From an uncultured Chloroflexia bacterium (GTDB lineage: Bacteria; Chloroflexota; Limnocylindria; QHBO01), in NCBI GenBank assembly GCA_963822845.1, contig CAWGIY010000004.1, forward strand, positions 218,850 to 282,849: 64,000 nucleotides of DNA, in the 5' to 3' direction. Positions 16,164 through 40,147 of this stretch are shown piece after piece (the stretch's first letter is position 1; each line of letters begins with the position of its first letter). A program made the translations under genes and the position numbers. The notes beneath the pieces are model-generated. The model was not told where the DNA came from, ran no database searches, and worked only from the letters and a program-made list of their open reading frames with translations.

Positions 16164-19100
16164 CTACGGCTCGACGGTCTCGATGATCACGTCGTTGCGA
16201 CCAACGAGGAAGCCGTCGCTCGTGCGAATCTCGACGTTCCCGTACAGGACGCGGCCGTCGGCCGGCTCAGCAAGCGCGGTGATGTCGGCCGGCACCGTCC
16301 AGGTGGCGCCGGTCGCACGGAGCTCGCTGGTATCGGTCACGTCGATCGTGCCCTGCGGCTGCGTGCCTCCGGCCCCGGTCGTGAAGACGTCGATGTACTC
16401 GTACGTCGTCGTTCCCGCCGGCACGTTGAAGCCGTCGACGACGACGACCCACACGCCCGGCCTCAGCTGCGCCGGGTTCACCGTCACCGACTCTTCCGAG
16501 TCGCCGTCGGCGCTCTGCCCGCGGTTGTTGCAGCCCGCGAGCGTGTCCGGATTGTCGGTCGGGTCCGCGCAGTCGAACACGAAGAGATCGAGGTCGGCTG
16601 CCGGATCACTCGGGCTCCCGATCGTCGCCCGGAACGAGTTGACCCCCGTCGGGAGTGTCACCGAGTTCTGCTGCACCTCGGTGTCGGCGATCGTCGGCGT
16701 GTCGAGCAGCGCGCTGCCGAGCGTGCTGTCCACCGCGCCACCGGTGAAGGCGGCGAAGTGGTTCGTGACCTCGTACTCGCGCTCGATCGCCAATCCGAGC
16801 GTCGCCGACGCGATCACGTCGGGATCCGGCTCAACCGTGGCGCCCAGGATCGTGGCCGTGATCGAGAACGGGACGTTGTCGGCGTCCGACGTTCGCCGCG
16901 CGTCGACCGAGACCTCCCACACGCCGGGCAGCGGGTCGAAGACCGTGCGGCTCGTCACCGACTCGCCGGTGGCACACGTGCCGGGGTTGTAGCAGTTCGA
17001 GACCGCGTTCGACTCGAACGGGAGGCCCCATGGTGTCCAGCGCAGGAACCTGATCTGCCCTGCACCCGCTGCGGACCCTCCGCCCGTCATGTCGACCCTG
17101 AAGGCCGGCGCGCCCTCGGGCACGCTGAAGAAGTAGTGCAGTGTCTGCGCCCGGTCGATCGTCCCGGACTTCGTCACCGTGAACCCGGTATCGGCCGTGA
17201 GCTGGTCCGCCGCGATGACGGTGTTCATCGCGAAGTAGTCGATCCCGACGGTGCCCGGATCGTCCAGGCGAAGGATCGCCGAGTGCGCTCCCACGCTGCC
17301 CGGGGTGACCGTCACCGGGAACGACACCATGCGGTTCTTCGGAAGCGCCACCGAGGCGGCCGACGAGAACGTCCCGTCGTTGCCGACCCAGCTGACGTTG
17401 TACGTCTTCATCCCGCTCGGACCGGTGGTCCGGCGGAACGAGTAGGTTCGGGGGTACGAACTGCCGACCTCGACCCCCTCGCGGTCATGGATGCCCTGGC
17501 CGACGTCGGGAGTGGCCAGGAAGTCTGACAGGGCGGTGTTCACCGCCACCGATCCGTTGATCGTGACGGTGCCGATGTTCTGGCGCAGGAGGTCCCACGC
17601 CGCGTTGACGTCGAGCAGGCCGACCCCCTGGTCGTATGCCTGGAACCGGGTACCGGTCTCCGGGTCGTCCTCGACCAGGAACTCCGCCGAGGACATCAGC
17701 GCCTGGCGGATCTGGGCGGGCTTGAACTGGACACCCGGCGTCTGCTTGGCCGCACTCACCAGGAGCGCACCGACGCCGGCGGCCTGCGGAGCGGCCATCG
17801 ACGTGCCGTTCGCCAGCGTGTAGCCCGGCGGCAGCGGCGGAACGTGCTGGATCCCGGGGACCTGCTGCCAGAGCGGAGTGGTGCTGATGGCGGCACCCGG
17901 CGCCACGGCGCTGGGCTTGAACCCGCCATCCTCGCGCGGCCCGCGCGAGCTGAAGTAGTGCAGGTTGTGCTGGAACGGCGTGTTCACGCCGTAGTCGGCG
18001 AACATCGTGTCGTCGGTCAGGTAGGCGCCCATGCCCATGACCGTCCCGCACAGGCCGGGATCGCCGGCGGTGTTCAGCCCCGGACCGCTGTTGCCGATGG
18101 ACATGAACATCTGAACCTTGCGATTCTCGATGAGCCGGTCGTACAGGACGCACCGAGTGTTGTTGCCGTCGTTGAGCGCCGGCAGCCCGCCGATGCTCAT
18201 GTTGATGACGTCGACCTTCTGCTTGGCGACGTAGATCATCCCCTCCATGAGCGCGTGAGTCGTGCACCCGGTAACGAAGAGGCAGGCGCGCGACGAGATG
18301 ATCTTTGCTCCCGGGGCGGCCCCGCTCATGTCTCCGCCGAACAGCGAATTCCCGGCGGCGATGCCGGCCACGTGCGAACCGTGGAACGCCGACACGATGC
18401 CGATGTTGACGAACTTGTTCGGGTTGTCGATCTGGACGACGAACGGCATCCGCTCGGCGATCGCCGTGGCGGGGTTATCGGTCCCGAAGTAGCCGACGTC
18501 GTGCCTGACCTTGTAGTTGGTCATGCGGGTCTGGTCGGCGAAGCTCTGGTTCTGGTTGGTGTCCACCCAGACGCGGTTGTTGTTCTCGCTCCACAGCACG
18601 GCGAAGATACCGCTGCTGCCGGCCGGGTTGCCGTCGCGGTTGACGTCGTTGCCGACCTCGCCCCCGAGCCGCGAATCGCGCTCGTTGAAGAGGCCGATGC
18701 GATACGAGCCCGAAGCCGGGGCCGTGTACGTCACCGACTGGAACGTGAACGTCGCGCCGCTCACCTGGGCCGACATGTTGACCCACGTCGGATCCGAATC
18801 CGTCAGCGGGTCGGTCCCGGTGACCCAGTCGATGATCTTGCGCTCGCCGGTGCTCGTCGTCGTCAGGCTCGGGTGATCGAGCGAGATGCCCGAGTCGACG
18901 ATGCCGATCGTCACGCCGCGGCCGTCCCACTCGGGATGCGCCGCCAGGAACGCGGCGGCGCCGGTGTCCTGGATCGGCATGTACGGGTTGGCGTTCGGGG
19001 TGGTTGCGTCGGGCGGCGGTCGGTTGGCGGCCGCGGCGGCGCCCTCCGGCGTCGGACTCGGAAGCGGCACGACCTCGTCGAGGTCGACGGCTTCGACGCT

Positions 19101-19427
19101 GGCGGCCGACGCGACGCCGAGGACCTTGCCGGTCGGAACGTCCGCGCGGATGTAGCCGAACTCGGCGTCGCGGTAGCGGACCTTCCCGCCGGCGGCCACG
19201 ATCGCGGCTTCGGCCTGCGCAATCGCGCCTCCCTTGGCGGCGACGAGGATCGTGACGGTCTTGCGGCCTTCGACCTCGGCCTTCGCCAGGAGCTGCTCGT
19301 CGTGGAGCCCCAACCGCGGTTCGGTTGGGTCCACGGCCAGCGCCATCGTCGGCAGCATGGCCGAGACGACGAGGACCACGATGAAGCCGAGCGCGAAGCC
19401 GCGCCCGGCGCGCCGGTGCTGGGACAT
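16164..19427 (-). CDS. S8-family (subtilisin-like) serine peptidase, large secreted multidomain
   Basis: 1087 aa. Signal/TM N-terminus. Catalytic triad motifs VDSGISLDHPSL (Asp), FHGSHVAGIAAG (His), ANGTSMAAPQAAGVGALL (Ser). Confidence 0.9.
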   Translation of the reverse strand: MSQHRRAGRGFALGFIVVLVVSAMLPTMALAVDPTEPRLGLHDEQLLAKAEVEGRKTVTILVAAKGGAIAQAEAAIVAAGGKVRYRDAEFGYIRADVPTGKVLGVASAASVEAVDLDEVVPLPSPTPEGAAAAANRPPPDATTPNANPYMPIQDTGAAAFLAAHPEWDGRGVTIGIVDSGISLDHPSLTTTSTGERKIIDWVTGTDPLTDSDPTWVNMSAQVSGATFTFQSVTYTAPASGSYRIGLFNERDSRLGGEVGNDVNRDGNPAGSSGIFAVLWSENNNRVWVDTNQNQSFADQTRMTNYKVRHDVGYFGTDNPATAIAERMPFVVQIDNPNKFVNIGIVSAFHGSHVAGIAAGNSLFGGDMSGAAPGAKIISSRACLFVTGCTTHALMEGMIYVAKQKVDVINMSIGGLPALNDGNNTRCVLYDRLIENRKVQMFMSIGNSGPGLNTAGDPGLCGTVMGMGAYLTDDTMFADYGVNTPFQHNLHYFSSRGPREDGGFKPSAVAPGAAISTTPLWQQVPGIQHVPPLPPGYTLANGTSMAAPQAAGVGALLVSAAKQTPGVQFKPAQIRQALMSSAEFLVEDDPETGTRFQAYDQGVGLLDVNAAWDLLRQNIGTVTINGSVAVNTALSDFLATPDVGQGIHDREGVEVGSSYPRTYSFRRTTGPSGMKTYNVSWVGNDGTFSSAASVALPKNRMVSFPVTVTPGSVGAHSAILRLDDPGTVGIDYFAMNTVIAADQLTADTGFTVTKSGTIDRAQTLHYFFSVPEGAPAFRVDMTGGGSAAGAGQIRFLRWTPWGLPFESNAVSNCYNPGTCATGESVTSRTVFDPLPGVWEVSVDARRTSDADNVPFSITATILGATVEPDPDVIASATLGLAIEREYEVTNHFAAFTGGAVDSTLGSALLDTPTIADTEVQQNSVTLPTGVNSFRATIGSPSDPAADLDLFVFDCADPTDNPDTLAGCNNRGQSADGDSEESVTVNPAQLRPGVWVVVVDGFNVPAGTTTYEYIDVFTTGAGGTQPQGTIDVTDTSELRATGATWTVPADITALAEPADGRVLYGNVEIRTSDGFLVGRNDVIIETVEP

Positions 19428-23516: not shown

Positions 23517-24601
23517 CCCGGCCTCGGGATCTCCTCGCCGCGTAGCACGACGTCGGGCCGCGTTGCGCGCCAGTCGTAGTCGGCGACGCGCTCGTCGGCG
23601 CCGAGCAGGCCCTGCGAGCGGAGCCAATCGTCGTTGTAGAGCTTGCCGACGTAGTTTCGTCCCGAGTCGGGCAGCAGGACCACGAACAGGGCGTCGGGAT
23701 CGTCGAGCGCGCGCGCGACCTGGAGCGCGGCCCACAGCACGGTCCCGCCGGACTCGCCGACCAGGATCCCCTCGCGCGCCGTTGCGGCGCGGGCGGTGAG
23801 CATCGAGTCGCGGTCGCCGACGCGCACGACCATGTCGCAGATGTCCGCGTCGTAGGTCGTCGGCCAGAAGTCCTCACCGATCCCCTCGGTCAGGTAGGCA
23901 TGCGGCGTGGCCCCGGAGTAGACCGAACCGGCCGGATCGGCCCCGACGATGACCATCGACGGCTGCCGTTCCTTCAGGAACTTCCCCGCCCCGGAGATCG
24001 TGCCGCCGGTGCCGAGCGCGACCACGAAGTGCGTGACACGCCCCCCGGTCGCATCCCAGATCTCCGGCCCCGTCGTCTCGTAGTGCGCCGACGGATTCGC
24101 GGGGTTCGAGTACTGGTCCGGCTTCCAGGCGCCCGGCGTCTCGCGCGCGAGCCGGTCGGAGACCCGGTAGTACGAGCGCTCGTCGTCCGGGTCGACGTCG
24201 GTCGGGCAGACCACGATTTCGGCGCCGTAGGCACGCAGCAGGGCCCGCTTCTCCTCCGACTGCTTGTCGGCCATGACGAAGATGCACCGATAGCCCTTGA
24301 CCGCGGCCGCCTGCGCCAGCCCAACGCCGGTGTTGCCCGAGGTCGGCTCGATGATCACGCCGCCGGGCTGGAGGAGCCCGGCCCGCTCGGCGGCCTCGAT
24401 CATCGGCAGCGCGATGCGGTCCTTGACCGATCCGCCCGGGTTCATGTGCTCGAGCTTGGCCACCAGTCGCGGCCGGACGTCGGCGCCCAGTCGATCGAGC
24501 GCGACGAGCGGCGTGTCACCCACGGCGGCGGTGACGTCGGGCAGGATGCCCGGCCGGTCAGCCAGCGGAGGGCTCCGCCTGCGCCTGCGGTGCGGGCGCA
24601 T
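23513..24601 (-). CDS. cysteine synthase / cystathionine beta-synthase family PLP enzyme
   Basis: 362 aa. GDTPLVAL, SVKDRIAL, EPTSGNTGVGLA, GTGGTISG motifs of the CysK/CysM/CBS fold. 44-nt overlap with the lgt C-terminal tail. Whether ATG 24601 is the true start is uncertain. Confidence 0.85.
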   Translation of the reverse strand: MRPHRRRRRSPPLADRPGILPDVTAAVGDTPLVALDRLGADVRPRLVAKLEHMNPGGSVKDRIALPMIEAAERAGLLQPGGVIIEPTSGNTGVGLAQAAAVKGYRCIFVMADKQSEEKRALLRAYGAEIVVCPTDVDPDDERSYYRVSDRLARETPGAWKPDQYSNPANPSAHYETTGPEIWDATGGRVTHFVVALGTGGTISGAGKFLKERQPSMVIVGADPAGSVYSGATPHAYLTEGIGEDFWPTTYDADICDMVVRVGDRDSMLTARAATAREGILVGESGGTVLWAALQVARALDDPDALFVVLLPDSGRNYVGKLYNDDWLRSQGLLGADERVADYDWRATRPDVVLRGEEIPRPG

Positions 24602-25457
24602 CGGTCTGGGGCTCGTCGGCGGGCCGGATCATCGGTGAGCCCCATCCACGGCGATGGCGAATGATCAGCCAGGCGAGTGCAAGCACGAAGCCGATGATGC
24701 CCAGCCACATCGCCGTGGGCAGCCCGAGGACCGTCCAGTTGTTGACGCGATAGGTCTCGAGCAGCGTGCGGACGGCTCCGTACCACATGATGTACATGAG
24801 CACCGCATCGCCGGCGAAGAGACGCGGGCCGTAGCGGCGGATGACGAACAGCAGGACCGCCATGCCGATGAGGTTGAGGATCGCCTCGTAGGCGAAGAGC
24901 GGCACGAAGGTGGTCGTCTCGACCGGATAGGTCAGCGCGTCCCAGCCCGTCTCGGCGCGGTGGAACTCGTCGATCTGGATGCCCAACGGCAGGCACGGCG
25001 GGAACTCGACGCCGCACAGCGTGGTTGGCGGACCATAGAGCTCCTGGTTCACGAAGTTGCCGAGGCGGCCGATCGCCTGCCCCAGCAGCAATGCCGGCGC
25101 CGCGATGTCCATCCAGCGCGCGGTGCTGAGACCGCGAGAGCGGGTGTAGACGAAGACGCCGAGCGCCCCTCCCGCGATGCCGCCGGGAATGCCGAGGCCG
25201 CCGTTCCAGATCTGGGGGATCTCGACCGGGCTCGTGGAGTAGTGGTCCCACAGGTGGACGACGTGGTAGAGCCGAGCGCCGATGATCGCGAAGATCATCA
25301 CGATCAGGAGCATGGACCACGCGTGGTCGGGGTCCTCGTTCAGCCACCGTGCCACGCGCGTGGCGAGCAGGGTGCCGGCCAGGGCCGCGGCGGCGATGAA
25401 GATCCCGTACCAGTGGACCTGGAGCGGCCCGATCTCGAGGGCGACAGGGTCGATCAC
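24558..25457 (-). CDS. lgt: prolipoprotein diacylglyceryl transferase
   Basis: Internal GTG start VIDPVALEIGPLQVHWYGIFIA within ORF 24558..26801. Lgt signature region GRLGNFVNQELYG. Pro/Ala/Gln-rich C-terminal tail. Confidence 0.85.
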   Translation of the reverse strand: MIDPVALEIGPLQVHWYGIFIAAAALAGTLLATRVARWLNEDPDHAWSMLLIVMIFAIIGARLYHVVHLWDHYSTSPVEIPQIWNGGLGIPGGIAGGALGVFVYTRSRGLSTARWMDIAAPALLLGQAIGRLGNFVNQELYGPPTTLCGVEFPPCLPLGIQIDEFHRAETGWDALTYPVETTTFVPLFAYEAILNLIGMAVLLFVIRRYGPRLFAGDAVLMYIMWYGAVRTLLETYRVNNWTVLGLPTAMWLGIIGFVLALAWLIIRHRRGWGSPMIRPADEPQTDAPAPQAQAEPSAG

Positions 25458-28140: not shown

Positions 28141-28889
28141 TGGACGCGGCGGGTGAGCGCGCGAAGCGCACGGGCCCGCGAGAGCTGAGCGTGGCGGTCA
28201 CGCCGCGGTATCGGTTCATGCTGGGCCTCAACCGTCTCATCGTCAGGCTCCTGTTCGACGTTCGCGCCACCGGTCTCGAGCACTGGCCGAACCCGCCGTT
28301 TCAGCTGGTCGCCAACCACCACAACGGCATCGACCCGCTGCTCGTCATGTCGGTCGCACCGGTCGAGCCGCGGATCACCTGGTTCGGTCCCCGCGAAGCG
28401 GACTTCAGCCGCGGCTTCAAGAACCGGTTGATGGCGTTCTTCGGCGGAGTCATCCCATACCACCCGGAGATGACGACGCTCACCTCGGCGGTCCGCGCCG
28501 TTCGACGCGTCTTCGAGGCCGACGGCGTCCTCGGCATCTTCGCCGAGGGGCGCATCGGCTTCCGCGAGAGCGAGCTGCTGCCATTCGAGGACGGCGCTGC
28601 CGCCTTCGCCGCCACCTCCGGCGTTCCGGTCGTGCCGTGCGCGATCGTCGGTAGCACCGATCTGTGGTTCCGCCGGCGCATCGAGGTCCGCTTCGGCGAA
28701 CCCATGGAGACCGATGCCGTCCGCGGACGCGAGGCCCGCGCCGCACTCGAGGCCCGCATCCGAGAGGCCATCGGCGCGATGCTCCCGGCCTCCGAGCCGC
28801 GCCTGCCTCGACGCCGGCCGCTCTCGTTCCTGACCGACCTGCTCAACGGCGCGGAGGACGTCGCGCGACGCAGCAGCGGCGGACGCTAG
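28140..28889 (+). CDS. lysophospholipid (1-acyl-sn-glycerol-3-phosphate) acyltransferase, PlsC family
   Basis: ATG 28140 overlaps the MFS stop (ATGA). HXXXXD-type motif NHHNGIDP. FAEGRIG (EGTR-like) block. Confidence 0.8.
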   Translation: MDAAGERAKRTGPRELSVAVTPRYRFMLGLNRLIVRLLFDVRATGLEHWPNPPFQLVANHHNGIDPLLVMSVAPVEPRITWFGPREADFSRGFKNRLMAFFGGVIPYHPEMTTLTSAVRAVRRVFEADGVLGIFAEGRIGFRESELLPFEDGAAAFAATSGVPVVPCAIVGSTDLWFRRRIEVRFGEPMETDAVRGREARAALEARIREAIGAMLPASEPRLPRRRPLSFLTDLLNGAEDVARRSSGGR

Positions 28890-28901
28890 CATCGGCCTCG
28901 C

Positions 28902-29174
28902 ATGCTCCCGTTCGTCTGGACCCTGTTCGTCGTGTTCGCCGTGGGCGGCTTTCTGATGATCGCGGCCTACTGGCTCGACGTGCAGGACCGGCCTGACCTC
29001 GGCGCACGCGCCAGGATCGCGTGGTCAGCGGCCGTGGTCGTCTTCCCGATCTCGATCCCGATCTACGCCTTCGCGGGCGGTCCGAACTGGCCGCTGGCGC
29101 TCCGCATCGGCAGTCTCGTGCCGGGTGTCGCGCTTGTCCTCTTCGCCGGCTTCGTGGTCGGCGTCTTCACCTGA
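28902..29174 (+). CDS. small two-TM membrane protein (PLD-nuclease N-terminal-domain-like)
   Basis: 90 aa. Two hydrophobic helices flanking a W-rich loop (YWLDVQDRPDLGARARIAWS). Confidence 0.55.
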   Translation: MLPFVWTLFVVFAVGGFLMIAAYWLDVQDRPDLGARARIAWSAAVVVFPISIPIYAFAGGPNWPLALRIGSLVPGVALVLFAGFVVGVFT

Positions 29175-29727
29175 GGCCGTCGCGGCGAAAGGCGAGCATG
29201 CCCACCGCGCCGATGAGCAGCGCCGCCGCCAGCACGCCGATCACCGGCGCCGGCACGTCGAGCGTGAACCCCGAATCGTCGGCGACGGCGATCGAGTCGT
29301 TGAGCGGCAGCGCCAGCTTGATGCGATTGAGCTCGCCCGGATCGACGTCGTTGGTGAGCGTCGTGCCGGTACAGAGGTCGGTACTGAGGCGACCCTCCCA
29401 CGCCGAGGCGATCACCAGCCACTCCTCACCGATGGACATGTCGAGGCCGCAGCTCGCGCCGCCGCCGGATGCCACGTCGAGCACGAACGGGCTCGCCATC
29501 GACTCCTTGGAGTGCGAGACCTCGAAGGCGGTCCGCGCGGTCGGGAACTGCTCCAGCTCGATGACTTGCTCCCCCTCCTCCGCCACCACGGTGCCGATAA
29601 ACGCGACGTCGGCGGCCGCGATCGCCTCCTCGTAGCCGAAGAACGCGCACGAGCATGCGAAGGCGGTGGTCGCGGGCAACGCGGTCGTTCCGACCGCAAG
29701 CGCGAATGCCGCCAGAACCCTGCTCAT
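29167..29727 (-). CDS. secreted, membrane-tethered TIMP-like (N-TIMP/NTR-fold) protein
   Basis: The start MSRVLAAFALAVGTTALPATTAFA (SPase I site AFA|C) lies within ORF 29167..29886. The mature protein begins CSCAFFGYEEAIAAADVAFIGTVV…, with Cys at mature positions 1, 3, 69 and 95, and the motif GEEWLVIAS. It has a C-terminal TM helix (VIGVLAAALLIGAVGMLAF) and a basic stop-transfer (RRDGLR). Confidence 0.6.
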   Translation of the reverse strand: MSRVLAAFALAVGTTALPATTAFACSCAFFGYEEAIAAADVAFIGTVVAEEGEQVIELEQFPTARTAFEVSHSKESMASPFVLDVASGGGASCGLDMSIGEEWLVIASAWEGRLSTDLCTGTTLTNDVDPGELNRIKLALPLNDSIAVADDSGFTLDVPAPVIGVLAAALLIGAVGMLAFRRDGLR

Positions 29728-29798
29728 CGGTCGCATGCTGGCGGGACGCCGAAGGGTTGCCACAGGTTGCATCGTTCCGATCCCCCTATCATCGGCCA

Positions 29799-31232
29799 AT
29801 GACGAGCCAGACCGATACCGACCTCTCCGCCGCCGCCGAGGTGGCCGTCGAGTACCTCCGCGAGCACGACGCCGAGCATCTCGCACAGCTCGACGAGTTC
29901 CTCTCGATCCAGAGCGTCAGCGCCGATCCCGAACGCGCCGGCGAGGTCCGGCGCACGGCGCAATGGATCGTCGACGAGCTGACGAGGCTGGGCATCGAAC
30001 GCGCGACTGTCCACGAGACGACCCACCACCCGATCGTCACCGCCGAGTGGATGAAGGCCGGGGCCGACGCGCCGACGGTGCTCGTCTACTGCCACTACGA
30101 CGTCCAGCCGACCGACCCGCTCGACGAGTGGATCCGCCCGCCGTTCGAGCCGCGCCACGAGGACGATCGGGTCTACGCCCGCGGCGCGGGTGACGACAAG
30201 GGCCAGCTGTTCATGCACCTCAAGGCGGTCGAGGCCTGGATGGCCGCGGCCGGCCGTCTGCCGCTCAACCTGCGCTTCTTCTTCGAGGGCGACGAGGAGG
30301 TCGGCTCGGAGCCGGTCGAGGCGTTCATCGATGAGCACGGCGACCTGCTGAAGGCCGACGTCTGCGTCGTGTCCGACGGCGACACGTTCGACGACGATGG
30401 CACGCCCGCCATCGGCTACGGCCTGCGAGGGATCGCCTACTGGGAGGTCCGCGTCCACGGCCCGCGCCAGGACGTGCACTCCGGCCAGTACGGCGGCGGC
30501 GTCGACAACCCGATCAACGTGCTCGTCCGCATGCTCGCCTCATTGACCGATGCCGACGGCCGCTTCACCGTCCCGGGCTTCTACGATCGCGTCCGCGACC
30601 TGACCGATGAGGAGCATGCCGCCTACGCCGCCCTGCCGTTCGACGAGGGCGCATGGCGCATGGAGACCGACGTCCCCGCCGCGATGGGCGGTGAGCCGGG
30701 GTACACGCTGAAGGAGCGCCTCTCCGCCCGCCCGACCTTCGACATCAACGGAATCTGGGGCGGGTACACGGGCGAGGGCGCCAAGACGATCATCCCCGCA
30801 TGGGCCGCCGCGAAGATCTCGACGCGCCTCGTTCCCGAGCAGGACTACCGCGAGATCGAGCGGTCGGTGCAGGCACACCTCGAGGCGATCGCACCTCCCA
30901 CCGTCGCCGTCGAGGTCCGGATCATCCATGGCGGGGCCCCGGTCATCACCCCGCTCGACCATCCGGGCATCGCTCCGGCCGCACGTGCCCTCGAGGCTGG
31001 CTTCGGAACGGCGCCGCTGTTCCAGCGCTCGGGTGGCTCGGTACCGGTGGTCGCAGCGCTCGACGCGCACCTCGGCCTCAAGACGCTGATGGTCGGCTTC
31101 GCGAACCCGACCGGCAACTTCCATGCTCCCAACGAGTGGATGAGCCTGCGCAACCTGCGCGACGGGATGGCGTCGATCGTCCACCTCTGGGCCGAGCTGG
31201 GCGCGATGCGCGCCGAGGACCTGCGCGGCTAG
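29799..31232 (+). CDS. M20-family dipeptidase/peptidase (Dug1/PepV-like)
   Basis: Start MTSQTDTD inside ORF 29655..31232. Metal-binding blocks: HYDVQP, ARGAGDDKGQ, FFFEGDEEVGS, HAPNE. Confidence 0.85.
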   Translation: MTSQTDTDLSAAAEVAVEYLREHDAEHLAQLDEFLSIQSVSADPERAGEVRRTAQWIVDELTRLGIERATVHETTHHPIVTAEWMKAGADAPTVLVYCHYDVQPTDPLDEWIRPPFEPRHEDDRVYARGAGDDKGQLFMHLKAVEAWMAAAGRLPLNLRFFFEGDEEVGSEPVEAFIDEHGDLLKADVCVVSDGDTFDDDGTPAIGYGLRGIAYWEVRVHGPRQDVHSGQYGGGVDNPINVLVRMLASLTDADGRFTVPGFYDRVRDLTDEEHAAYAALPFDEGAWRMETDVPAAMGGEPGYTLKERLSARPTFDINGIWGGYTGEGAKTIIPAWAAAKISTRLVPEQDYREIERSVQAHLEAIAPPTVAVEVRIIHGGAPVITPLDHPGIAPAARALEAGFGTAPLFQRSGGSVPVVAALDAHLGLKTLMVGFANPTGNFHAPNEWMSLRNLRDGMASIVHLWAELGAMRAEDLRG

Positions 31233-32082: not shown

Positions 32083-33219
32083 CTACTCGACGAGGTAGAG
32101 CTCCGTCGAGGCCGTGTTCAGCCGCTCGCCGCCGTCATCGGTGCAGATCACGATGTCCTCGATCCGCGCACCCCACGTGTCGCGAACGTAGATCCCCGGC
32201 TCGACGCTGAAGGCGTTGCCCGCCACCAGCGGCTCCGGGTTGGAGGCGACGATGTATGGCTCCTCGTGGGTTTCCATACCGATGCCGTGGCCGGTCCGAT
32301 GGAGGAACTCCTCCCCGTAGCCGGCGTCGGTGATGATGTCGCGCGCGACGGCGTCGATCTCGGCGGCCGGGACGCCGGGGCGCACCGCCTCGCAGGCCGC
32401 GGCCTGGGCCTCGCGCAGCACGGCGAAGAGGCCGGCGAAGTCGGCAGGCGGCTCGCCCACGAACGCCGTGCGCGACGTGTCGCTGGCGTAGCCGGCCTTC
32501 GTCCCGCCGATGTCGAGGACGATCGCGTCCCCGGCACCGATCGTGCGGGACCCCGCCTCGTGATGCGGGCTGGCCGAGTTGGGTCCGGAGGCGACGATGG
32601 CGAAGCCCGCATCGTCGTGCCCCTCGCCGATGAGCAGCTCGCGGATGTGGCGACTGACCTCGCCCTCGGTGCGTCCCGAGAGGCGCTCACCGGTGATCGC
32701 GACCATCGCCCGATCCGCCGCCGCCGCCGCGGATCGCAGGCGCTCGATCTCGTCGGCGTCCTTCACCCGTCGCAGCTCCGCCATCGTCGAGCCGGCCGGG
32801 ACGAGCTCGGCGGGATCCAGGGCGGCGCGCAGCCGGAGCGCGAAGCGGGCCCACATCTGGTCCTGGACGGCGACCCGACGCGCGGGTCCCACGAGTGCCT
32901 GGACGGCGCGAATGGGGTCATCGGTCTCGTCCCACGCCACCATCTCGACATCGTCTACGAGCTCGCCGAGCGCGTGACGCGCCAGCGGCTCCTCGAGCCG
33001 CGGCAGGACGAGCACGGGCTCGCCGTCGACCGGGATGAAGAGGCAGGTCAACCGCTCGAGCGCCGGGGCAGCGTACCCGAGGAGGTACGCGTAGTCGGGT
33101 GATGGCGTGATGAGCAGTGCATCGATCCCACCGTCCGCGGCCGCGGCGGCTGCCCGTCGCAGGCGTGCGCGATGCGTCGATGCGGCGAACAGGCCCGCCG
33201 CCGGCGCTCCGGTGGTCAT
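32083..33219 (-). CDS. pepP: M24-family Xaa-Pro aminopeptidase/dipeptidase
   Basis: 378 aa. Pita-bread fold metal ligands: DIGGTKAGYASD, HGIGMETHE, VEPGIY. Confidence 0.85.
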   Translation of the reverse strand: MTTGAPAAGLFAASTHRARLRRAAAAAADGGIDALLITPSPDYAYLLGYAAPALERLTCLFIPVDGEPVLVLPRLEEPLARHALGELVDDVEMVAWDETDDPIRAVQALVGPARRVAVQDQMWARFALRLRAALDPAELVPAGSTMAELRRVKDADEIERLRSAAAAADRAMVAITGERLSGRTEGEVSRHIRELLIGEGHDDAGFAIVASGPNSASPHHEAGSRTIGAGDAIVLDIGGTKAGYASDTSRTAFVGEPPADFAGLFAVLREAQAAACEAVRPGVPAAEIDAVARDIITDAGYGEEFLHRTGHGIGMETHEEPYIVASNPEPLVAGNAFSVEPGIYVRDTWGARIEDIVICTDDGGERLNTASTELYLVE

Positions 33220-33294
33220 GCGGCAAGCCTACACCGATGGCCCATTGACCCGGCCCGGCCGCGTGCCAACATGGAGGCTCAACGGCGTGTGACA

Positions 33295-35862
33295 ATGTCA
33301 TACGTGCCAACCTCTGGACGAGGCAAGGTGGTGGCAGCCAGGCGAGCACCAGCACGCGTAGGGGTGGCGACGTCCATCGCCGTCCTGCTCCTGGCCGGGC
33401 TGCTGCCAGCTCCGGCGGTCCTCGCCGCCGACCCGATCACCTCGGCGCGGCAGGAGCTGAGCCGTCGCGTGGGCGGCAGCCCCAACGACTTCCAGCTGGT
33501 CGGCGAATCCGCCATCACCGCTGGTCCCGGCGTCACGGCCGATCCCGGCGTCACGGCCGCGGCGGGCATGTCGGCGGCCAAGTTCATCGACGCGCGCACC
33601 GGCGCGATCCATAGCTCGTACCGGCGCTCCGATGGCACCACCGGATCGGTCGCGCTGCTCGACGATGCCCGAGCGGCGGCCCTGGCCGCCCTGCCCGTCC
33701 TCGAGCGCAAGGCCGATGCGCCGCTCGTCGCCGCCGTGCACGCGCCGGCGCCGGCCAGGGTCCTGCGGGTGGCGGTCTGGCTGGACGTCGACCCCACCGC
33801 GGCCGAGGCCGCGGTCGAGCAGGCGCACCCGGAGGTCGAATGGCTGGCCGGCCGGCCGATCCCGACGACGCTCGAGCAGGCCCGCGCACTGCGCGCCGAG
33901 CTCTGGGAAGCGCGACGTGCGGTCTACGCGGATGCGGCCGACGCCGTCGAGGCCGAGGTCACCGCCCTCGGCGGCACGGTGGCGTACGTCAGCACGTCGG
34001 CGCCGCTCGTGTTCGTCGACGTGCCCGCCGCCGGCGTAGCAGGGCTGGCCGAACGGCCCGAGGTCCTCAGCCTCGGCCTGGAGCAGGAATGGCGAACGTT
34101 CATGTCCTCCGCCGGCTCGACGGTCGGTGCGAACTGGACGACCGGCAGCGGCGACCAGGGCAACGGCGTGCGGGTGGCGGTCGTCGAGTACCACAACACC
34201 TCGAACACCGGCGACCTCGCGGGGCAGGTCGTCGCCCGACGGAGCACCACCGGCACGATCGCCAGCCACATCCATCCGACCTGGGTGGCCGGCGCGATCG
34301 CCAGCCGCAGCTCGACCTGGCGCGGGGTCGCCCCGGGTGCGGACATCGTCAGCTCGAGCACGGGCGGCTACACGCCCGGGCTCTCGACCGATCGTGCCGT
34401 CATCGCGGCAGCGGATTGGGCCGTCTCACCCAGCGGCGGTGACGCGGACATCGTCAATGCCAGCTTCGGCCAGGACACCGCGACGGGAGCCGAGGAGGCG
34501 CGCCGCTACTTCGACTCCATCGGCTGGCAGGACGGAAGGCTGGTCGTGGCAGCGAGCGGGAACTTCGGGACCTTCGGCCACTGGAACGTCGTGTCGCCGG
34601 CGACCGGCTACAACGTCCTCGCCGTGGGCGGCGTCAACGACCGCAACTCAGGTGGCACCGGCGACGACGTCCTGTGGTACGGCTCGAATGGCGCCAGCTA
34701 CCGCGACCCAGGTGGGACGTCCTGGAACCCGCACGGTGACTTCAACAAGCCGAACCTGTCGGCCCCCGCGGTGAGCGTTCGCACCGCCAACGGCACCATT
34801 GGCGACGGCACGAGTATCGCGAGCCCGATCGTGGCCGGCATCGCCGCGCAGCTGCTGGCTCGTGCGCCGAGCCTCGCGACGTGGCCGGAGGGGGCGCGTG
34901 CCGTCATCATGGCCGGCGCGAACCGCCGGACGCCGATGCCCGGCGGTGGCGTCAGCGCCGATCACGAGGGCGTCGGGACCGCGTCGGCACGGTGGTCGAA
35001 CCGGGTCCTCGACAACGGCGCCTGGGGCGGCTGGACCATCGGCTCGATGACCGAAGGACAGGTCGTGACCCGCAACATCTCGGTGGTGAAGGGTCAGCGG
35101 ATCCGGGTGGCGCTGGCGTGGAGCAGCCACACCTCGGGAGCGTCGAACCTCGGCAAGACCGACATCCTGCGATCGGACCTCGACCTGGTCGTGCGGCAGC
35201 CGAACGGCGCAACGACAGGGTCGTTCTCGTTCGACAACTCGTACGAGTCGGTCGGCGTCACCGCCTCGGGCTCGGGCACGATGCGGATCGAGGTCCGCCA
35301 CGACCGCTTCGACACCACGTCGGAGCCCTATGGCCTGGCGTGGTCGCTGACGAGCCCATACGCCGACGTCGGCCCGTCGAGCTTCTACGACGACATCCTG
35401 TTCATCGCCGGTCGCGGGATCACCACCGGCTGCGGCGCCGGCCGCTTCTGCCCCACCGACTCGGTGACCAGGGCGCAGATGGCCACCTTCCTCACCCGCG
35501 CGCTGAATCTCCCGCCCGCCGGCGGCGACTTCTTCGACGACGACGAGAACAGCTCTCACGAGAGCAGCATCAACCGCATCGCCGCCGCCGGCATCACGAC
35601 CGGCTGCCACGGCGACAACTTCTGCCCCGATGGACTGGTGCGCCGCGGCCACATGGCGACGTTCCTGGCCCGCGCGCTGAACCTGCCACCCGCGACCCGG
35701 GACTACTTCACCGACGACAACCGCAGTGAGCACGAGGACAGCATCAACCGCATCCGCGCCGCGGGCATCACGACCGGCTGCGGCGGCACCAGCTTCTGCC
35801 CCGGTAACCGGGTCACCCGCCAGCAGATGGCCGCATTCCTCCATCGGGCGCTGACACCCTGA
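33295..35862 (+). CDS. S8-family serine peptidase with three C-terminal SLH-like cell-surface repeats
   Basis: The start is MSYVPTSG (or MEAQ at 33271) inside ORF 33172..35862. Signal peptide. Triad motifs AVVEYHN…D, HPTWVAGAIA, GDGTSIASPIVAGIAA. The C-terminus carries three ~55-aa repeats: F(Y/F)DD…GITTGCxxxxFCP…VTRxQMATFLxRAL. Confidence 0.85.
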   Translation: MSYVPTSGRGKVVAARRAPARVGVATSIAVLLLAGLLPAPAVLAADPITSARQELSRRVGGSPNDFQLVGESAITAGPGVTADPGVTAAAGMSAAKFIDARTGAIHSSYRRSDGTTGSVALLDDARAAALAALPVLERKADAPLVAAVHAPAPARVLRVAVWLDVDPTAAEAAVEQAHPEVEWLAGRPIPTTLEQARALRAELWEARRAVYADAADAVEAEVTALGGTVAYVSTSAPLVFVDVPAAGVAGLAERPEVLSLGLEQEWRTFMSSAGSTVGANWTTGSGDQGNGVRVAVVEYHNTSNTGDLAGQVVARRSTTGTIASHIHPTWVAGAIASRSSTWRGVAPGADIVSSSTGGYTPGLSTDRAVIAAADWAVSPSGGDADIVNASFGQDTATGAEEARRYFDSIGWQDGRLVVAASGNFGTFGHWNVVSPATGYNVLAVGGVNDRNSGGTGDDVLWYGSNGASYRDPGGTSWNPHGDFNKPNLSAPAVSVRTANGTIGDGTSIASPIVAGIAAQLLARAPSLATWPEGARAVIMAGANRRTPMPGGGVSADHEGVGTASARWSNRVLDNGAWGGWTIGSMTEGQVVTRNISVVKGQRIRVALAWSSHTSGASNLGKTDILRSDLDLVVRQPNGATTGSFSFDNSYESVGVTASGSGTMRIEVRHDRFDTTSEPYGLAWSLTSPYADVGPSSFYDDILFIAGRGITTGCGAGRFCPTDSVTRAQMATFLTRALNLPPAGGDFFDDDENSSHESSINRIAAAGITTGCHGDNFCPDGLVRRGHMATFLARALNLPPATRDYFTDDNRSEHEDSINRIRAAGITTGCGGTSFCPGNRVTRQQMAAFLHRALTP

Positions 35863-35892: not shown

Positions 35893-36318
35893 TCATGGCT
35901 CGATCGTGAGAGAAGCCTCGCGCGCGGCGGCCGCCTCGATGGTCCAGGCCCGCATCATCGGCTCGGCGTCGCCAAGGCTCGCCACGAGGTGGACCACCGG
36001 ATAGCGCGCCTCGCGAACGTCGGTCCGCGATGGCACCGCTGGAGACCGCGGATGGGAGTGGAAGATCGCGACGAGGGCATCGCCGCTCGCCTCGAGCTGG
36101 TGGATGATGCGGACGAGGTCGAGCGGCTCGACGTCGTAGCGGTACGGGCTCGCAAGCCGGTTGCGGGCCGGATGGACGCTGGTGACCTGACCGCGGACCG
36201 GATCACCGCCGAGCAACGCGCACGACTCGTTGGGCAGCTCCCCTCTGGCGTGCTCGAGCAGCTGCGTGGCGAGGTCCGCCGGCAGGCGAAGGCCGGCCGC
36301 CTCAGGACGCCGAGGCAT
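35893..36318 (-). CDS. JAMM/MPN+ (Mov34, Mec+-like) metalloprotease
   Basis: Full JAMM motif: E…HSHPRSPAVPSRTD (H-x-H-x7-S-x2-D). The likely start is MPRRPEAAGLRLP at 36318. Confidence 0.75.
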   Translation of the reverse strand: MPRRPEAAGLRLPADLATQLLEHARGELPNESCALLGGDPVRGQVTSVHPARNRLASPYRYDVEPLDLVRIIHQLEASGDALVAIFHSHPRSPAVPSRTDVREARYPVVHLVASLGDAEPMMRAWTIEAAAAREASLTIEP

Positions 36319-36387
36319 GCCCCGACTGACCGATCGAGGTGGCTGCGGGCGTGCCACAGGCGGCGCAGGCAGGATCGCGGGACGCCG

Positions 36388-36756
36388 TCACCTCCTCGAA
36401 ACGGGTCTCGGCGCCGATGCGGGGGTGAGGTCCTTCGCCGGCTCCTCCCAGGCGCCGCCGCGTGCGGGCCAATCGGCGATCAGTGCGTTGAGGTTGACGA
36501 CGTCGGCATAGCCGTTGGCCACCAGGAACTCCGCGGCCCGCCCGGAGCGCGCGCCGGAGCGGCAGTAGAGCAGGAGCGGAGAGGATCGGTCGGGCAGGTC
36601 GGTCGCCATCCGCGTCGGCAGCTCGGCGAGCGGGATGTGCAGCGCGCCCGCGACGTGGCCGGCGTCCCACTCGAACGGCTCGCGCACATCGACGACGGTG
36701 CTGCCCGCGTCGCGAAGCCGGATCCCCTCGTCGACGTCCACCTGGCGGAGGCTCAC
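36388..36756 (-). CDS. single-domain rhodanese (sulfurtransferase)
   Basis: GTG start overlaps the sufU stop (GTGA). Active-site loop LYCRSGARSG. 122 aa. Confidence 0.75.
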   Translation of the reverse strand: MSLRQVDVDEGIRLRDAGSTVVDVREPFEWDAGHVAGALHIPLAELPTRMATDLPDRSSPLLLYCRSGARSGRAAEFLVANGYADVVNLNALIADWPARGGAWEEPAKDLTPASAPRPVSRR

Positions 36757-37187
36757 GGCGCCGATCCGCCGCTGCCGGCCTCGGCGAGCACGTCGGCCTC
36801 GTCCGGCCAATTGGCGGCCGCCCCGGTGACGGCGCCCTGGAGCACCTTGTAGCCGAGCAGCGCGCACTTCAGGCGAGCCGGACCGATCGGCACCCCGAGC
36901 GCACCGACCACCTCGCGCGGGTCCATGCCGCGCACCTCGTCGAGGCTCATCCCGCGCAGCTCGTCGGTCATGATCGAGGCCGATGCCTGGCTGATCGCGC
37001 AGCCGCGACCGTCGAACGCGACGTCGTCGATCCGCTCCGCCGCGGGGTCGAGCCGGAGCGTCATGCTCAGCTCGTCGCCGCAGGTCGGGTTCGAATCGGC
37101 GAAGCGCAGGTCGTGCGGGTCGAGGACGCCGCGGTTGTGGGGCTCGCGGTAGTGCTCGAGGATGAAGTCCCGGTACAGGTTGTCCAT
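36753..37187 (-). CDS. sufU: SUF-system Fe-S scaffold/sulfur acceptor SufU (NifU-like)
   Basis: MDNLYRDFILEHYREPHNRG…NPTCGDE…GRGCAISQASAS: canonical SufU Cys/Asp ligands. Confidence 0.9.
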   Translation of the reverse strand: MDNLYRDFILEHYREPHNRGVLDPHDLRFADSNPTCGDELSMTLRLDPAAERIDDVAFDGRGCAISQASASIMTDELRGMSLDEVRGMDPREVVGALGVPIGPARLKCALLGYKVLQGAVTGAAANWPDEADVLAEAGSGGSAP

Positions 37188-37188
37188 C

Positions 37189-38448
37189 TCAGGCCGTGCC
37201 GAAGATGCGCTGCGCGGCGCGGATGGCATCGGTCAGGCGGTCGACGTCGTCGAGGTCGTTGTAGACGCTGAAGCTGGCGCGGGTCGTGGCCGGCACGTCG
37301 TAGCGCTGCATGACCGGCTGGGCGCAGTGGTGGCCGGCGCGGACGGCGATGCCGTGGCGATCGAGGATCTCGGCCAGGTCGTGCGGGTGGATGCCGTCGA
37401 CGACGAAGCTGATGACGCCGGCGTGCTCGTCGGCCGAGCCCGGGCCGAGCCTGCGCAGGCCGTCGATCTCGCCGAGCGCGCGCCAGGCGGACTCGAAGAG
37501 CACCCGCTCGTGCGCCCGCACGTTGGCCATGCCGATCCGCTCCAGGTAGTCGACGGCCGCCCCGAGCCCGATCGCCTCCGCGATGGCCGGCGTCCCGGCC
37601 TCGAACTTCCATGGCACCTCGTTCCACTCGGCGGTCTCGAGGGTGACGCGGGTGATCATGCTGCCGCCGGTCAGGAACGGTGGCATGTCGTCGAGGAGCT
37701 CGCGGCGACCCCACAGCGCGCCGATCCCGCTTGGGCCGAGCATCTTGTGGCCCGACAGCGCCGCGAAGTCGACGCCCAGGCTGGCGACGTCGACCGGCAT
37801 GTGCGGCACGCTCTGTGCCGCGTCCAGGACCACGAGTGCGCCGGCGGCGTGGGCGCGCGCCACGATCTCGGCGACCGGGTTGATCGTGCCGAGCGAGTTG
37901 CTCACCTGCGACAGCGTCAGCAGCTTCGGCGCGCGAGCAAGGTGCTTCTCGAGGTCCTCGAGGTCGAGCCTGCCGTCGTCCGTGATCGCGACGTGGGCGA
38001 GGGTCGAGCCCGTCGCGGCGGCGAGCTGCTGCCACGGCACGAGGTTGGCGTGGTGCTCCATGCCGGTGCTGACGACGAGGTCGCCCGGACCGATGTTCGC
38101 GCGGCCCCAGCTGTAGGCGACGAGGTTCAGCGCCTCGGTGGCATTGCGCACGAAGACGACCTCGCGGGCGCTCGGCGCACCGATGAAGGCGGCGAGGGCC
38201 TTGCGCGCGCCCTCGAAGCGCGCGTCGGCGTCGGCGCTCAGCTCGTAGATCCCGCGATGGACGTTGGCGTAGTGGTGGGCATAGGCGTCGGCGATCGCAT
38301 CGATGACCGATCGCGGCTTCTGCGCCGAGGAGGCCGAGTCGAGGTAAGAGAGCGGCTCGCCCGAGCGGGTCGCGCGCTCGAAGGCTGGGAAGTCGGCGCG
38401 CAGCGCCGCCCCATCCAGGATCCGGGTGCCTGCCGGCTCGACGGCCAT
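37189..38448 (-). CDS. sufS: cysteine desulfurase SufS
   Basis: 419 aa class-V aminotransferase. SGHKMLGPSGIG (PLP-Lys). Active-site Cys region RAGHHCAQP. Confidence 0.9.
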   Translation of the reverse strand: MAVEPAGTRILDGAALRADFPAFERATRSGEPLSYLDSASSAQKPRSVIDAIADAYAHHYANVHRGIYELSADADARFEGARKALAAFIGAPSAREVVFVRNATEALNLVAYSWGRANIGPGDLVVSTGMEHHANLVPWQQLAAATGSTLAHVAITDDGRLDLEDLEKHLARAPKLLTLSQVSNSLGTINPVAEIVARAHAAGALVVLDAAQSVPHMPVDVASLGVDFAALSGHKMLGPSGIGALWGRRELLDDMPPFLTGGSMITRVTLETAEWNEVPWKFEAGTPAIAEAIGLGAAVDYLERIGMANVRAHERVLFESAWRALGEIDGLRRLGPGSADEHAGVISFVVDGIHPHDLAEILDRHGIAVRAGHHCAQPVMQRYDVPATTRASFSVYNDLDDVDRLTDAIRAAQRIFGTA

Positions 38449-38457
38449 GGGGCCTGG

Positions 38458-39318
38458 CTAGTGGGCCTCGACCGGCTCCGGCGCGGAAGCCTCGTCGCCG
38501 ACGCCGGCCGGCAGGCCGACCTGCTCGCGGACCCAGTCGTAGCCGTTGGCCTCGAGCTGGTGGCTCAGCTCCTCGCCGCCGCTCATCACGATGCGGCCGT
38601 CCAGCAGGACGTGCACGAACTGCGGCTTCACGTAATTCAGCATCCGCTGGTAGTGGGTGATCATCAGCACCCCCATCTCGGGCGAGATGGTGGCGTTGAT
38701 GCCCTCGGCGACCGTGCGCAGCGCGTCGATGTCGAGGCCCGAATCGGTCTCGTCCAGGATGGCCATCGACGGGCTGAGGACCGCCATCTGGAGCATCTCG
38801 AGCCGCTTCTTCTCACCGCCCGAGAAGCCCTCGTTGACGTAGCGGGCGGCGAAGCCCGGATCCATGCGGAGGAGCGCCATTTTCTCCTCCATCAGCTTGC
38901 GGAACTTCGCCAGCGGGATGCCGGTGTACTTGATCGAGGTCTCGCCGGTCTCGTCGGCCTGCTTCGGGTGGTGGATGGCGTTGTAGATGTTGCGCAGGAA
39001 GCTCGCGACGGTTACGCCGGGGATCGCGCTGGGATACTGGAAGGCCAGGAAGAGCCCCAGCCGGGCACGCTTGTCGGGTGACAGGCCGAGGGGGGTCGGG
39101 CCGTTCAGGAGATCGTGGCCGGCCCAGGTGATGCTTCCGGCATCGACGACGTAGTCGGGATGGCCCATCAGGGCGTAGGCCAGGCTCGTCTTGCCCGATC
39201 CGTTCGGGCCCATCAGGGCATGGACCTCGCCCTTGCTGACGGTCAGGTCGAGCCCCTTGAGGATCTTCTTGCCACCGATGCTCACCTCGAGCCCGGTGAT
39301 GACGAGTTGATCGGTCAT
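38458..39318 (-). CDS. sufC: Fe-S cluster assembly ATPase SufC
   Basis: The start MTDQLVITGLEV lies within ORF 38458..39738. Walker A GPNGSGKTS, ABC signature FSGGEKKR, Walker B ILDETDSGLD. Confidence 0.9.
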   Translation of the reverse strand: MTDQLVITGLEVSIGGKKILKGLDLTVSKGEVHALMGPNGSGKTSLAYALMGHPDYVVDAGSITWAGHDLLNGPTPLGLSPDKRARLGLFLAFQYPSAIPGVTVASFLRNIYNAIHHPKQADETGETSIKYTGIPLAKFRKLMEEKMALLRMDPGFAARYVNEGFSGGEKKRLEMLQMAVLSPSMAILDETDSGLDIDALRTVAEGINATISPEMGVLMITHYQRMLNYVKPQFVHVLLDGRIVMSGGEELSHQLEANGYDWVREQVGLPAGVGDEASAPEPVEAH

Positions 39319-39812
39319 GCGGTTGGCGTGTCCTGCGTGCTGCGTTGGGAGTTCATGGCGATGCGCCGGCGGCGCACCTCGATCGGATATGGCGGACCGC
39401 CCGCGGAGGCGAGCACCTCGGCCAGGCTCGTCGCGCCCAGTGATAGCGACAGCGTCTCGTAGACGCGCTGGAAGACCTCGTGCACGCTGCATGGCTGTGG
39501 CCGATCGCAGTGCTCGAGGTCGCCGACACCCGCGCACGGCATCTCGAGGATCGGGCCCTCGAGGGCGCGGATCGCATCGGCCATCGCGATCTGTGCGGCC
39601 GGGCGTGCCAGGCGGTAGCCGCCGGACTGGCCTCGGGTCGCGGTCACCAGCCCGGCCCGGCGCAGGTCGCCGGCGAGCTGCTCGAGGTAGGCGTGTGGCA
39701 GCTTCTCGCGCCTGGCGATCTCGGCCAGCGAGAGGCATCGGTCCTCGCCCTCGCTGCGGGCCAGCGTGACGAGGATGCGGACGCCGTACTCGGTGCGGGT
39801 GCTGATTCTCAT
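39315..39812 (-). CDS. Rrf2-family transcriptional regulator with IscR-like Cys3-His cluster ligands
   Basis: The start MRISTRTEYGVRILVTLA (wHTH) lies within ORF 39315..40046. C-x8-C-x5-C-x2-H in EMPCAGVGDLEHCDRPQPCSVH. ATGA overlaps with the Rieske stop and the sufC start. Confidence 0.8.
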   Translation of the reverse strand: MRISTRTEYGVRILVTLARSEGEDRCLSLAEIARREKLPHAYLEQLAGDLRRAGLVTATRGQSGGYRLARPAAQIAMADAIRALEGPILEMPCAGVGDLEHCDRPQPCSVHEVFQRVYETLSLSLGATSLAEVLASAGGPPYPIEVRRRRIAMNSQRSTQDTPTA

Positions 39813-40147
39813 CGGTCGTCGAGCCTCACGCGGACCTCGTCGCCGATCAGCTCGGTCGGGTAGGCCCGAACCGGTCGAACCGGCGGAAGGGCGAGGACGC
39901 GCCCGGTGAAGAGGTCGAAGCGGCCGCCGTGGCGCGGGCACTCGACCGCGGTGTCGTCCAGCTCGCCCTCGCCGAGTGTGCCGCCATCGTGGGTGCAGAC
40001 GTTGTCGATGGCGCCCCACTCGCCGTCCTCGGTGTGGCCCACGCACAGCGATCGGCCGTCGAGCTCGACCACGCGGACGGTGCCCGGCTCGACGTCACCG
40101 ACGCGAGCGACGGTCACGAACCCCGAGGCCTGTTCCAGTGCCGTCAT
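39809..40147 (-). CDS. Rieske [2Fe-2S] domain protein within the suf operon
   Basis: CTHDGGTLGEG…ECPRHGGRF (CxH…CxxH). 112 aa. Confidence 0.8.
   Translation of the reverse strand: MTALEQASGFVTVARVGDVEPGTVRVVELDGRSLCVGHTEDGEWGAIDNVCTHDGGTLGEGELDDTAVECPRHGGRFDLFTGRVLALPPVRPVRAYPTELIGDEVRVRLDDR

Follow-up and report, generated by a model that had tools for sequence, protein, structure and literature searches.

Does a bacterium encode a TIMP, with the exposed N-terminal cysteine on which the animal inhibitors rely to block metalloproteases? The question is raised by a minus-strand gene (29167..29772) in a 64,000-nucleotide stretch of DNA from an uncultured Chloroflexia soil bacterium (GenBank assembly GCA_963822845.1, contig CAWGIY010000004.1, positions 218,850 to 282,849), here called the window. 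An original prediction, made from the letters and their open reading frames (ORFs) alone, had proposed that this gene encodes a membrane-anchored protein with a Cys-Ser-Cys mature N-terminus and an N-TIMP-like cysteine framework. The present analysis makes it very probable that the product is homologous to TIMPs and shares their fold, and inclines us, by a narrow preference, to view it as a prokaryotic N-TIMP homolog that is anchored in the cytoplasmic membrane facing outwards, where it would inhibit an extracellular zinc metallopeptidase.

Architecture and homology of the encoded protein

The features of the gene and its product, all on the minus strand, are as follows.

29167..29772 (-), whole coding sequence of the TIMP-like gene, based on the ORF list, the sequence, a third-position GC content of 0.91 and identity to database protein P0001
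29781..29786 (-), candidate Shine-Dalgarno-like GGGGGA, read off the sequence 8 nt upstream of the ATG at 29772
29656..29772 (-), Sec signal peptide with a basic n-region, the hydrophobic core VLAAFALAVGTTAL and the c-region PATTAFA, which places Ala at -3 and -1
29647..29655 (-), mature N-terminus Cys1-Ser2-Cys3 (TIMP reactive-edge motif); Cys-x-Cys is conserved and aligns with Cys1-Ser2-Cys3 of TIMP-2
29281..29655 (-), predicted OB-fold domain of N-TIMP/NTR type, covering mature residues 1 to about 125
29446..29457 (-), Ala-Ser-Cys69-Gly segment, counterpart of the TIMP C-D connector (AVCG in TIMP-2, SVCG in TIMP-1); Cys-Gly is invariant in the family
29371..29373 (-), Cys95, invariant, equivalent to Cys99 of TIMP-1 and Cys101 of TIMP-2
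29251..29280 (-), linker from the domain to the membrane helix, ending in a conserved VPAP; predicted local distance difference test score (pLDDT) of 58 over model residues 161-170
29188..29250 (-), C-terminal transmembrane (TM) helix APVIGVLAAALLIGAVGMLAF, from about mature residue 136; helix 175-199 of the model
29167..29187 (-), basic cytoplasmic tail RRDGLR plus stop; AFRR is nearly invariant and the segment overlaps the convergent gene

The signal peptide ends in LPATTAFA and the mature protein begins CSCAFFGYEEAIAAADVAFIG. Cysteines occur only at mature positions 1, 3, 69 and 95, the block GEEWLVIAS begins at residue 76, and the TM helix has a mean hydropathy of 2.63 over 17 residues. 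The ORF, the AFA end of the signal, the Cys-Ser-Cys start, Cys69 and Cys95, the GEEWLVIAS block and the C-terminal TM segment are all as originally described. The protein is predicted to be a type I membrane protein with its TIMP-like part outside the membrane.

Homology to TIMPs becomes evident when the family, rather than the single sequence, is compared with sequences of known structure. A profile of the close family (A1) retrieved the TIMP-2 N-domain from the PDB sequences with an E-value of 7.3e-5, and a profile of 37 diverse members (A2) retrieved TIMP-2 (8.6e-10) and TIMP-3 (4.3e-6). With a profile restricted to the mature domains, hydrophobic segments excluded (A4), TIMP-2 (2.7e-10), TIMP-3 (4.7e-9) and TIMP-1 (4.6e-4) were recovered; the 15 best matches were all TIMPs and the next match had an E-value of 0.096. 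The profile alignments start at mature Cys1 of both proteins and run co-linearly over about 105 residues with the four cysteines matched. Aligned blocks (family/TIMP-2) comprise C-S-C/C-S-C, ADVAF/ADVVI, A-S-C-G/A-V-C-G at Cys72, ERWLV-A/KEYLI-G and L-C-S-G/L-C-D-F at Cys101, with Cys69-Gly of the target placed on Cys72-Gly73 of TIMP-2. From this correspondence with the TIMP cysteines we infer two putative disulfides, Cys1-Cys69 and Cys3-Cys95.

Comparison by hhalign with the four human N-TIMPs, of which the TIMP-2 sequence used is consistent with the PDB alignment, gave a probability of 91.7% for A1 and of 97.1% for A4 (E-value 5.4e-11). The claim of N-TIMP homology is thereby borne out, and the mature-domain profile leads to TIMPs and to no unrelated family. 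In the reverse direction, the Pfam TIMP model matches 6 of the 34 close relatives and, at E<=1, 17 of the 37 diverse ones, and its gathering score of 23.1 bits is exceeded by P0179 (31.3), P0178 (27.2) and P0113 (27.0). The Pfam NTR model (PF01759) matches one of the 37 diverse members, weakly (E-value 0.13). Automated PF00965 labels had been attached to part of the family, 3 of 54 in one search and marked 'weak' elsewhere. Pairwise identity between the target and TIMPs is 13-20%. Searches of NCBIfam and the PDB with the target alone yielded nothing useful, and weak single-sequence matches to OmpW, Rv0910 and MSMEG_5634 were judged to be noise.

The predicted structure points the same way. AlphaFold2, run on alignment A1 with no templates, gave a model of mean pLDDT 82.7, in which a five-strand core and a post-barrel helix are joined through a linker of low confidence to a long helix at the C-terminus. 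The top 20 Foldseek matches of this model in the PDB were TIMP-1, TIMP-2, TIMP-3 and the NTR domain of PCOLCE (best E-value 7.3e-5), and the TM-score normalised to the target was 0.68 for both N-TIMP-3 and N-TIMP-1. The model has the five-stranded OB/NTR fold of the TIMP N-domain, which the original prediction had proposed as a check of its claim.

It is hardly tenable that the resemblance to TIMPs reflects chance or convergence in a small, cysteine-containing beta protein. The low pairwise identity and the want of a Pfam or PDB match for the single sequence would fit such an explanation, but not the E-values and the 97% probability reached by the profiles, the co-linear alignment from residue 1 with every cysteine matched, the three members that pass the curated Pfam TIMP threshold, or the agreement of a template-free structure prediction.

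A family with a conserved cysteine at the predicted N-terminus

A word-indexed search recovered 34 relatives with 30-76% identity, all of which (34/34) keep A-C-x-C, both later cysteines (in C-G and L-C-x-G contexts) and the C-terminal TM segment, with a nearly invariant AFRR tail. An exhaustive hidden Markov model search over 1.84 billion cluster representatives returned 66 proteins at E<=1e-30, 1,637 at E<=1e-10 and 9,505 at E<=1e-3; the last count may be inflated because profile A1 includes the signal peptide and TM helix, and the figure of 1,637 is the one relied on. Cys-x-Cys lies inside the first 80 residues in 179 of 186 family sequences, so the N-terminal motif holds among the homologs, as the original prediction required.

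Positional statistics were based on these 179 members. The mature part has exactly four cysteines in 170 of them and a C-terminal TM-like segment follows in 167. At residue 2, Ser predominates (152 members), followed by Asp (12) and Thr (6). Invariant residues cluster on the reactive ridge, and the region matching the AB loop is variable. With few exceptions, the TIMP-like module lies at the N-terminus. Four longer members, P0113 (301 residues), P0131 (462), P0203 (684) and P0171 (406), either repeat the TIMP-like module two or three times in tandem or are much extended at the C-terminus; these extensions have no Pfam match, and the internal repeats of P0131 begin with CxxC, not CxC. Tandem TIMP-like paralogs also occur on the related metagenomic contig L014 (7442-7999 and 8001-8558), where one starts Cys-Thr-Cys and the other Cys-Asp-Cys, and their variable loops differ.

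The family is distributed over Chloroflexota, Actinomycetota and other phyla. Relatives found in GTDB are metagenome-assembled genomes (MAGs) labelled Chloroflexota, Candidatus Limnocylindria or 'uncultured Chloroflexia', and MAGs of Binatia, Steroidobacteraceae and Rhodospirillales gave weaker matches. Members with a source name are all called 'hypothetical protein'. A homolog is also present in a cultured actinomycete, Catellatospora sp. NPDC049111 (P0204; JBEZEB010000003.1, L026 7001-7609), which makes the hypothesis of an inhibitory function directly testable. Its gene lies between dciA (DUF721) and gyrB, in the region of the replication origin, and the host is experimentally tractable.

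Whether Cys1 carries a free amine depends on the enzyme that removes the signal peptide. Position -1 is Ala in all 179 members. At -3, 169 members have Val or Ala (Ala in 84), and position -2 is highly variable, being A, L, F (17), H (15), Y (13), V, Q (11), S, R (8) or others. Because the -1 Ala is invariant, -2 is variable and -3 is often Ala, cleavage by signal peptidase I is favoured and a lipobox can be set aside; the absolute conservation of Ala at -1 also argues for precise cleavage. We conclude from these sequence patterns that signal peptidase I would leave Cys1 of the target with a free amine.

In the contrary case the target would be a lipoprotein, processed by Lgt and signal peptidase II at a lipobox, with Cys1 lipidated and a TIMP-like function blocked. 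A cysteine directly after the signal peptide, the presence of lgt at 24558-25457, some 4 kb from the gene, and the V-[AST]-A-C found in a minority of homologs, which fits a loose lipobox, speak for it. Nevertheless it is very improbable, given that many members have H, Y, Q, R, F, N, D or K at -2 and almost half have Ala at -3, neither being compatible with [LVI][ASTVI][GAS]C; the target itself reads A-F-A-C, and the family fits the (A/V)-x-A rule of signal peptidase I. The c-region is long and contains proline, unlike the true lipobox signal MDRCRWLLAAVLVALVGAC of the M28 aminopeptidase gene at 50245-51699 of the window, where a short h-region leads directly into the lipobox. Furthermore, Cys1 belongs to the four-cysteine set that aligns with the TIMP disulfides, and anchoring at both ends of the protein would be unusual.

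The C-terminus follows a family pattern of [VI]-P-x-P, about 20 hydrophobic residues and A-F-R-R-[DE]-R (29188-29262 in the target). Its conservation exceeds the needs of a plain anchor and bears a loose likeness to exosortase-type sorting signals. The NCBIfam sorting-signal models do not match the target, Gram_pos_anchor gave weak matches only, in 2 of 34 relatives, and none of the other ORFs of the 64-kb window carries a PxP-TM-AFRR tail.

Proposed mechanism and its alternatives

In TIMPs, Cys1 chelates the catalytic zinc and residue 2 occupies the S1' pocket of the protease (PMC9409782). By analogy, the Chloroflexia protein would be exported by Sec and cut by signal peptidase I after Ala-Phe-Ala, leaving Cys1 with a free alpha-amino group. 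Two disulfides, Cys1-Cys69 and Cys3-Cys95, would fasten the N-terminal strand to the Ala-Ser-Cys-Gly connector, forming a TIMP-type wedge that a linker of roughly 30 residues and the single TM helix, basic tail inside, would hold at the cell surface. The wedge would most likely inhibit an extracellular zinc metallopeptidase by binding it tightly and non-covalently, with the amine and carbonyl of Cys1 binding the catalytic zinc and Ser2 entering the S1' pocket. Such a wedge could shield envelope proteins of the cell from its own or competitors' secreted metalloproteases; protection of the producer surface is suggested by the membrane tether, the same logic being found in the Tannerella potempins. 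Beyond homology, what was counted in favour of the mechanism is the invariant Ala at -1, the Ser/Thr at residue 2, the concentration of invariance on the ridge and the existence of paralogs that differ at residue 2. We give inhibition through zinc binding by Cys1 about an even chance. A more speculative variant would have the disulfide-locked N-terminus mimic the N-terminus of a substrate and target the di-zinc aminopeptidases of family M28; the window encodes two of these.

Several observations weigh against homology to TIMPs or against an inhibitory role. The target alone has no match in Pfam, not even to TIMP at E<=10, and stays below the gathering threshold of 23.1 bits. The third disulfide of the TIMP N-domain (Cys13-Cys124) is missing, Ala standing at the Cys13 position, and so is the vertebrate C-domain with its three disulfides: past residue ~125 there is only the linker, the TM helix and the basic tail. 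The cleavage site itself is assigned from the -3/-1 rule and conservation. Agrin NtA, netrin C and hookworm NTR proteins share the NTR/TIMP fold and are not protease inhibitors. No HEXXH zincin is encoded among the ORFs of the 64-kb window, and the metzincin motif HExxHxx[GN]xx[HD] is found neither in these ORFs nor in 25 related loci; the neighbourhood therefore names no target enzyme. Among the contexts of six distant members there is no conserved neighbour, and no partner enzyme emerges.

The non-inhibitory NTR proteins suggest that the protein could be a true TIMP/NTR homolog that serves as a surface binding module for the envelope, the surface layer (S-layer) or an environmental ligand, its cysteines being kept for stability. 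We consider this unlikely, though a serious competitor. NTR modules that do not inhibit proteases mostly lie within or at the C-terminus of their proteins and need no free N-terminal cysteine, whereas the module here directly follows a signal peptide with an invariant Ala at -1. Residue 2, although surface-exposed, is Ser or Thr in 158 of 179 members, and the likeness is to TIMPs specifically, as judged from the 17 of 37 diverse members matched by Pfam TIMP against the single one matched by Pfam NTR. Improbable, in turn, is a role as extracytoplasmic metal chaperone or sensor, in which Cys-x-Cys and the amine would bind free metal (Cu, Zn, Co or Ni) or the cysteines would act as a redox thiol pair. 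An N-terminal amine beside a cysteine is a plausible set of metal ligands, and there are weak hints from gene context, with a CbiM/CbiQ energy-coupling factor (ECF) transporter within a few kb of one distant member and a P-type ATPase near another. These contexts are not repeated elsewhere, however, and no conserved His- or Met-rich motifs are present; the four cysteines align one-to-one with two structural disulfides of TIMPs, and their exact number in nearly all members fits paired disulfides better than free thiols.

A membrane-tethered inhibitor of the TIMP type would differ in several respects from known systems. Compared with the vertebrate N-TIMP-1, -2 and -3 (PF00965, MEROPS I35), the target has neither Cys13-Cys124 nor a C-domain, and it has instead a C-terminal TM anchor with an AFRR tail and a prokaryotic host. 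Like single-domain invertebrate TIMPs and the cnidarian AvTIMP, for which a transmembrane segment has been reported, it consists of a TIMP/NTR module without the vertebrate C-domain (PMC4860685). Several of those metazoan TIMPs are without Cys-x-Cys, in contrast to the bacterial family, which retains it almost always.

Among bacterial inhibitors, Pseudomonas APRin and Serratia/Erwinia Inh (MEROPS I38) use a TIMP-like mechanism in which N-terminal residues enter the metzincin active site and the amine contacts the zinc. They differ from the target in being soluble, periplasmic, eight-stranded beta-barrels of unrelated structure, encoded beside their protease. These serralysin inhibitors are mentioned in the report on Listeria monocytogenes Tim (LMRG_00714), the partner of the metzincin Mtz, whose authors state that no bacterial TIMP-like protein had been recorded earlier (PMC8235301). 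Tim, like the target, is bacterial, membrane-associated and proposed to be TIMP-like. It is, however, a lipoprotein with the lipobox LTAC, cleavage releases its TIMP-like part, which begins about 50 residues into the protein, and its gene invariably has a metzincin gene beside it as a partner (PMC8235301), whereas no adjacent metzincin accompanies the target family in the window or the 25 loci. The target family differs further in its sequence-level homology to TIMPs, its Cys1 N-terminus and its C-terminal anchor. Neither PHROGs nor a scan of viral contigs gave a match or a relative of the target, so there is no evidence for a phage origin as in the case of Tim. The potempins of Tannerella forsythia are surface-anchored inhibitors that guard the producer from its own secreted peptidases, the same logic as is proposed for the target; they are, however, lipoproteins of the outer membrane with unrelated sequences, and the gene of each lies directly upstream of that of the peptidase it inhibits (PMC9890683).

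Reviews and evolutionary papers on TIMPs treat metazoan TIMPs only and tie their invention to the extracellular matrix (PMC9409782, PMC4860685, PMC10755359). Full-text literature searches found no description of a bacterial TIMP with a canonical N-terminus, Listeria Tim being the sole bacterial TIMP-like case. The family identified here is one of prokaryotic, single-domain, membrane-tethered TIMPs with two putative disulfides, real and uncharacterised, yet visible in Pfam taxonomy. The reactive edge (predicted free Cys1, Ser/Thr2, Cys3 and the x-C-G connector) is kept in prokaryotes, across at least ~1,600 clusters and several phyla. We advance tentatively, as somewhat short of an even prospect, that animal TIMPs are a small branch of a larger, mostly prokaryotic family of zinc-protease inhibitors with an N-terminal cysteine, its bacterial members acting as shields that are tethered to the membrane and block extracellular metallopeptidases through the same chelation by Cys1; if so, the TIMP fold and mechanism would predate Metazoa, or would have moved between bacteria and early animals. 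Should the bacterial proteins be inhibitors, the origin of TIMPs would need rewriting, and the family would represent a new class of surface self-protection or competition factors in bacteria and a source of small, two-disulfide TIMP scaffolds for engineering MMP and ADAM inhibitors.

Genomic context of the TIMP-like gene

The minus-strand reading frame is taken as the coding frame because its third-position GC content of 0.91 exceeds that of the overlapping plus-strand ORFs (0.66 and 0.82); the GC content of the window is 70.3%. The ORF ends, stop included, at 29167 (-). The ATG at 29772 gives a product of 201 residues that is identical to P0001; other start options are 29736 (189 residues) and 29727, the coordinate used in the original prediction. 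The gene is monocistronic, divergent from an M20 peptidase gene and convergent with a gene for a 90-residue membrane protein. Its start codon lies 26 nt from that of the M20 gene (gap 29773-29798), which leaves almost no room for two promoters, and transcripts may be leaderless. A scan of 28800-30000 revealed no sigma-70-like site and one weak terminator-like hairpin, located within the neighbouring gene.

Seven peptidase genes are present in the window.

16164-19427 (-), S8 peptidase with PPC domain
29799-31232 (+), M20 peptidase
32083-33219 (-), M24 peptidase
33172-35862 (+), S8 peptidase with SLH repeats
42874-44598 (+), M28 peptidase with PA domain and Sec signal
45871-47853 (-), S41 peptidase
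50245-51699 (-), M28 peptidase with PA domain and lipobox LVGAC

The M20 and M24 peptidases have no signal peptides. The 'protease-dense neighbourhood' once invoked for the gene is in this sense real, but as an argument for inhibition it is uninformative, there being no metzincin partner.

In related genomes a conserved order was found that comprises the S8-SLH protease, the M24 peptidase, an HTH_17/MerR regulator, the M20 peptidase and the divergent TIMP-like gene, followed by convergent genes for the 90-residue membrane protein, an acyltransferase and an MFS transporter. This order holds down to 34% identity and only within the Limnocylindria-like lineage, and we read it as lineage synteny, not as an operon. 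Judged by its GC content and its SLH-bearing protease, the window itself most likely stems from this lineage. Contexts of the distant members include a histidine kinase with acetyltransferases, PrsW with an aldehyde dehydrogenase, a tRNA synthetase with an aminotransferase and the nearby CbiMQ transporter, ClpP with ACBP, AllG/AllH, and dciA with gyrB at oriC.

The convergent 90-residue protein (28902-29174, +) has two helices and no Pfam match, and its gene is syntenic with the TIMP-like gene across the lineage, the two overlapping tail-to-tail by 8 nt (29167-29174). By eye, its W-x-x-D...P-x-x-x-P-x-x-Y pattern resembles the small N-terminal membrane domain of PLD proteins (PLDc_N). The lgt gene (24558-25457, -) overlaps an upstream MFS_3 gene and a downstream PALP gene, an arrangement that recurs in related contigs. 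A complete SUF Fe-S assembly cluster (SufB, SufD, a SufC-like ABC ATPase, SufS and a NifU/SufU-like protein), followed by a Prok-JAB gene, occupies 35893-42802 (-); in related loci a ThiF-rhodanese gene lies beside the JAB gene, which suggests a sulfur-carrier system. Finally, the ORF at 11302-13185 (+) joins a lactate/malate dehydrogenase C-terminal domain (residues 20-130) to a full citrate synthase domain (244-610), which points to an unusual fusion unless the ORF is over-extended.

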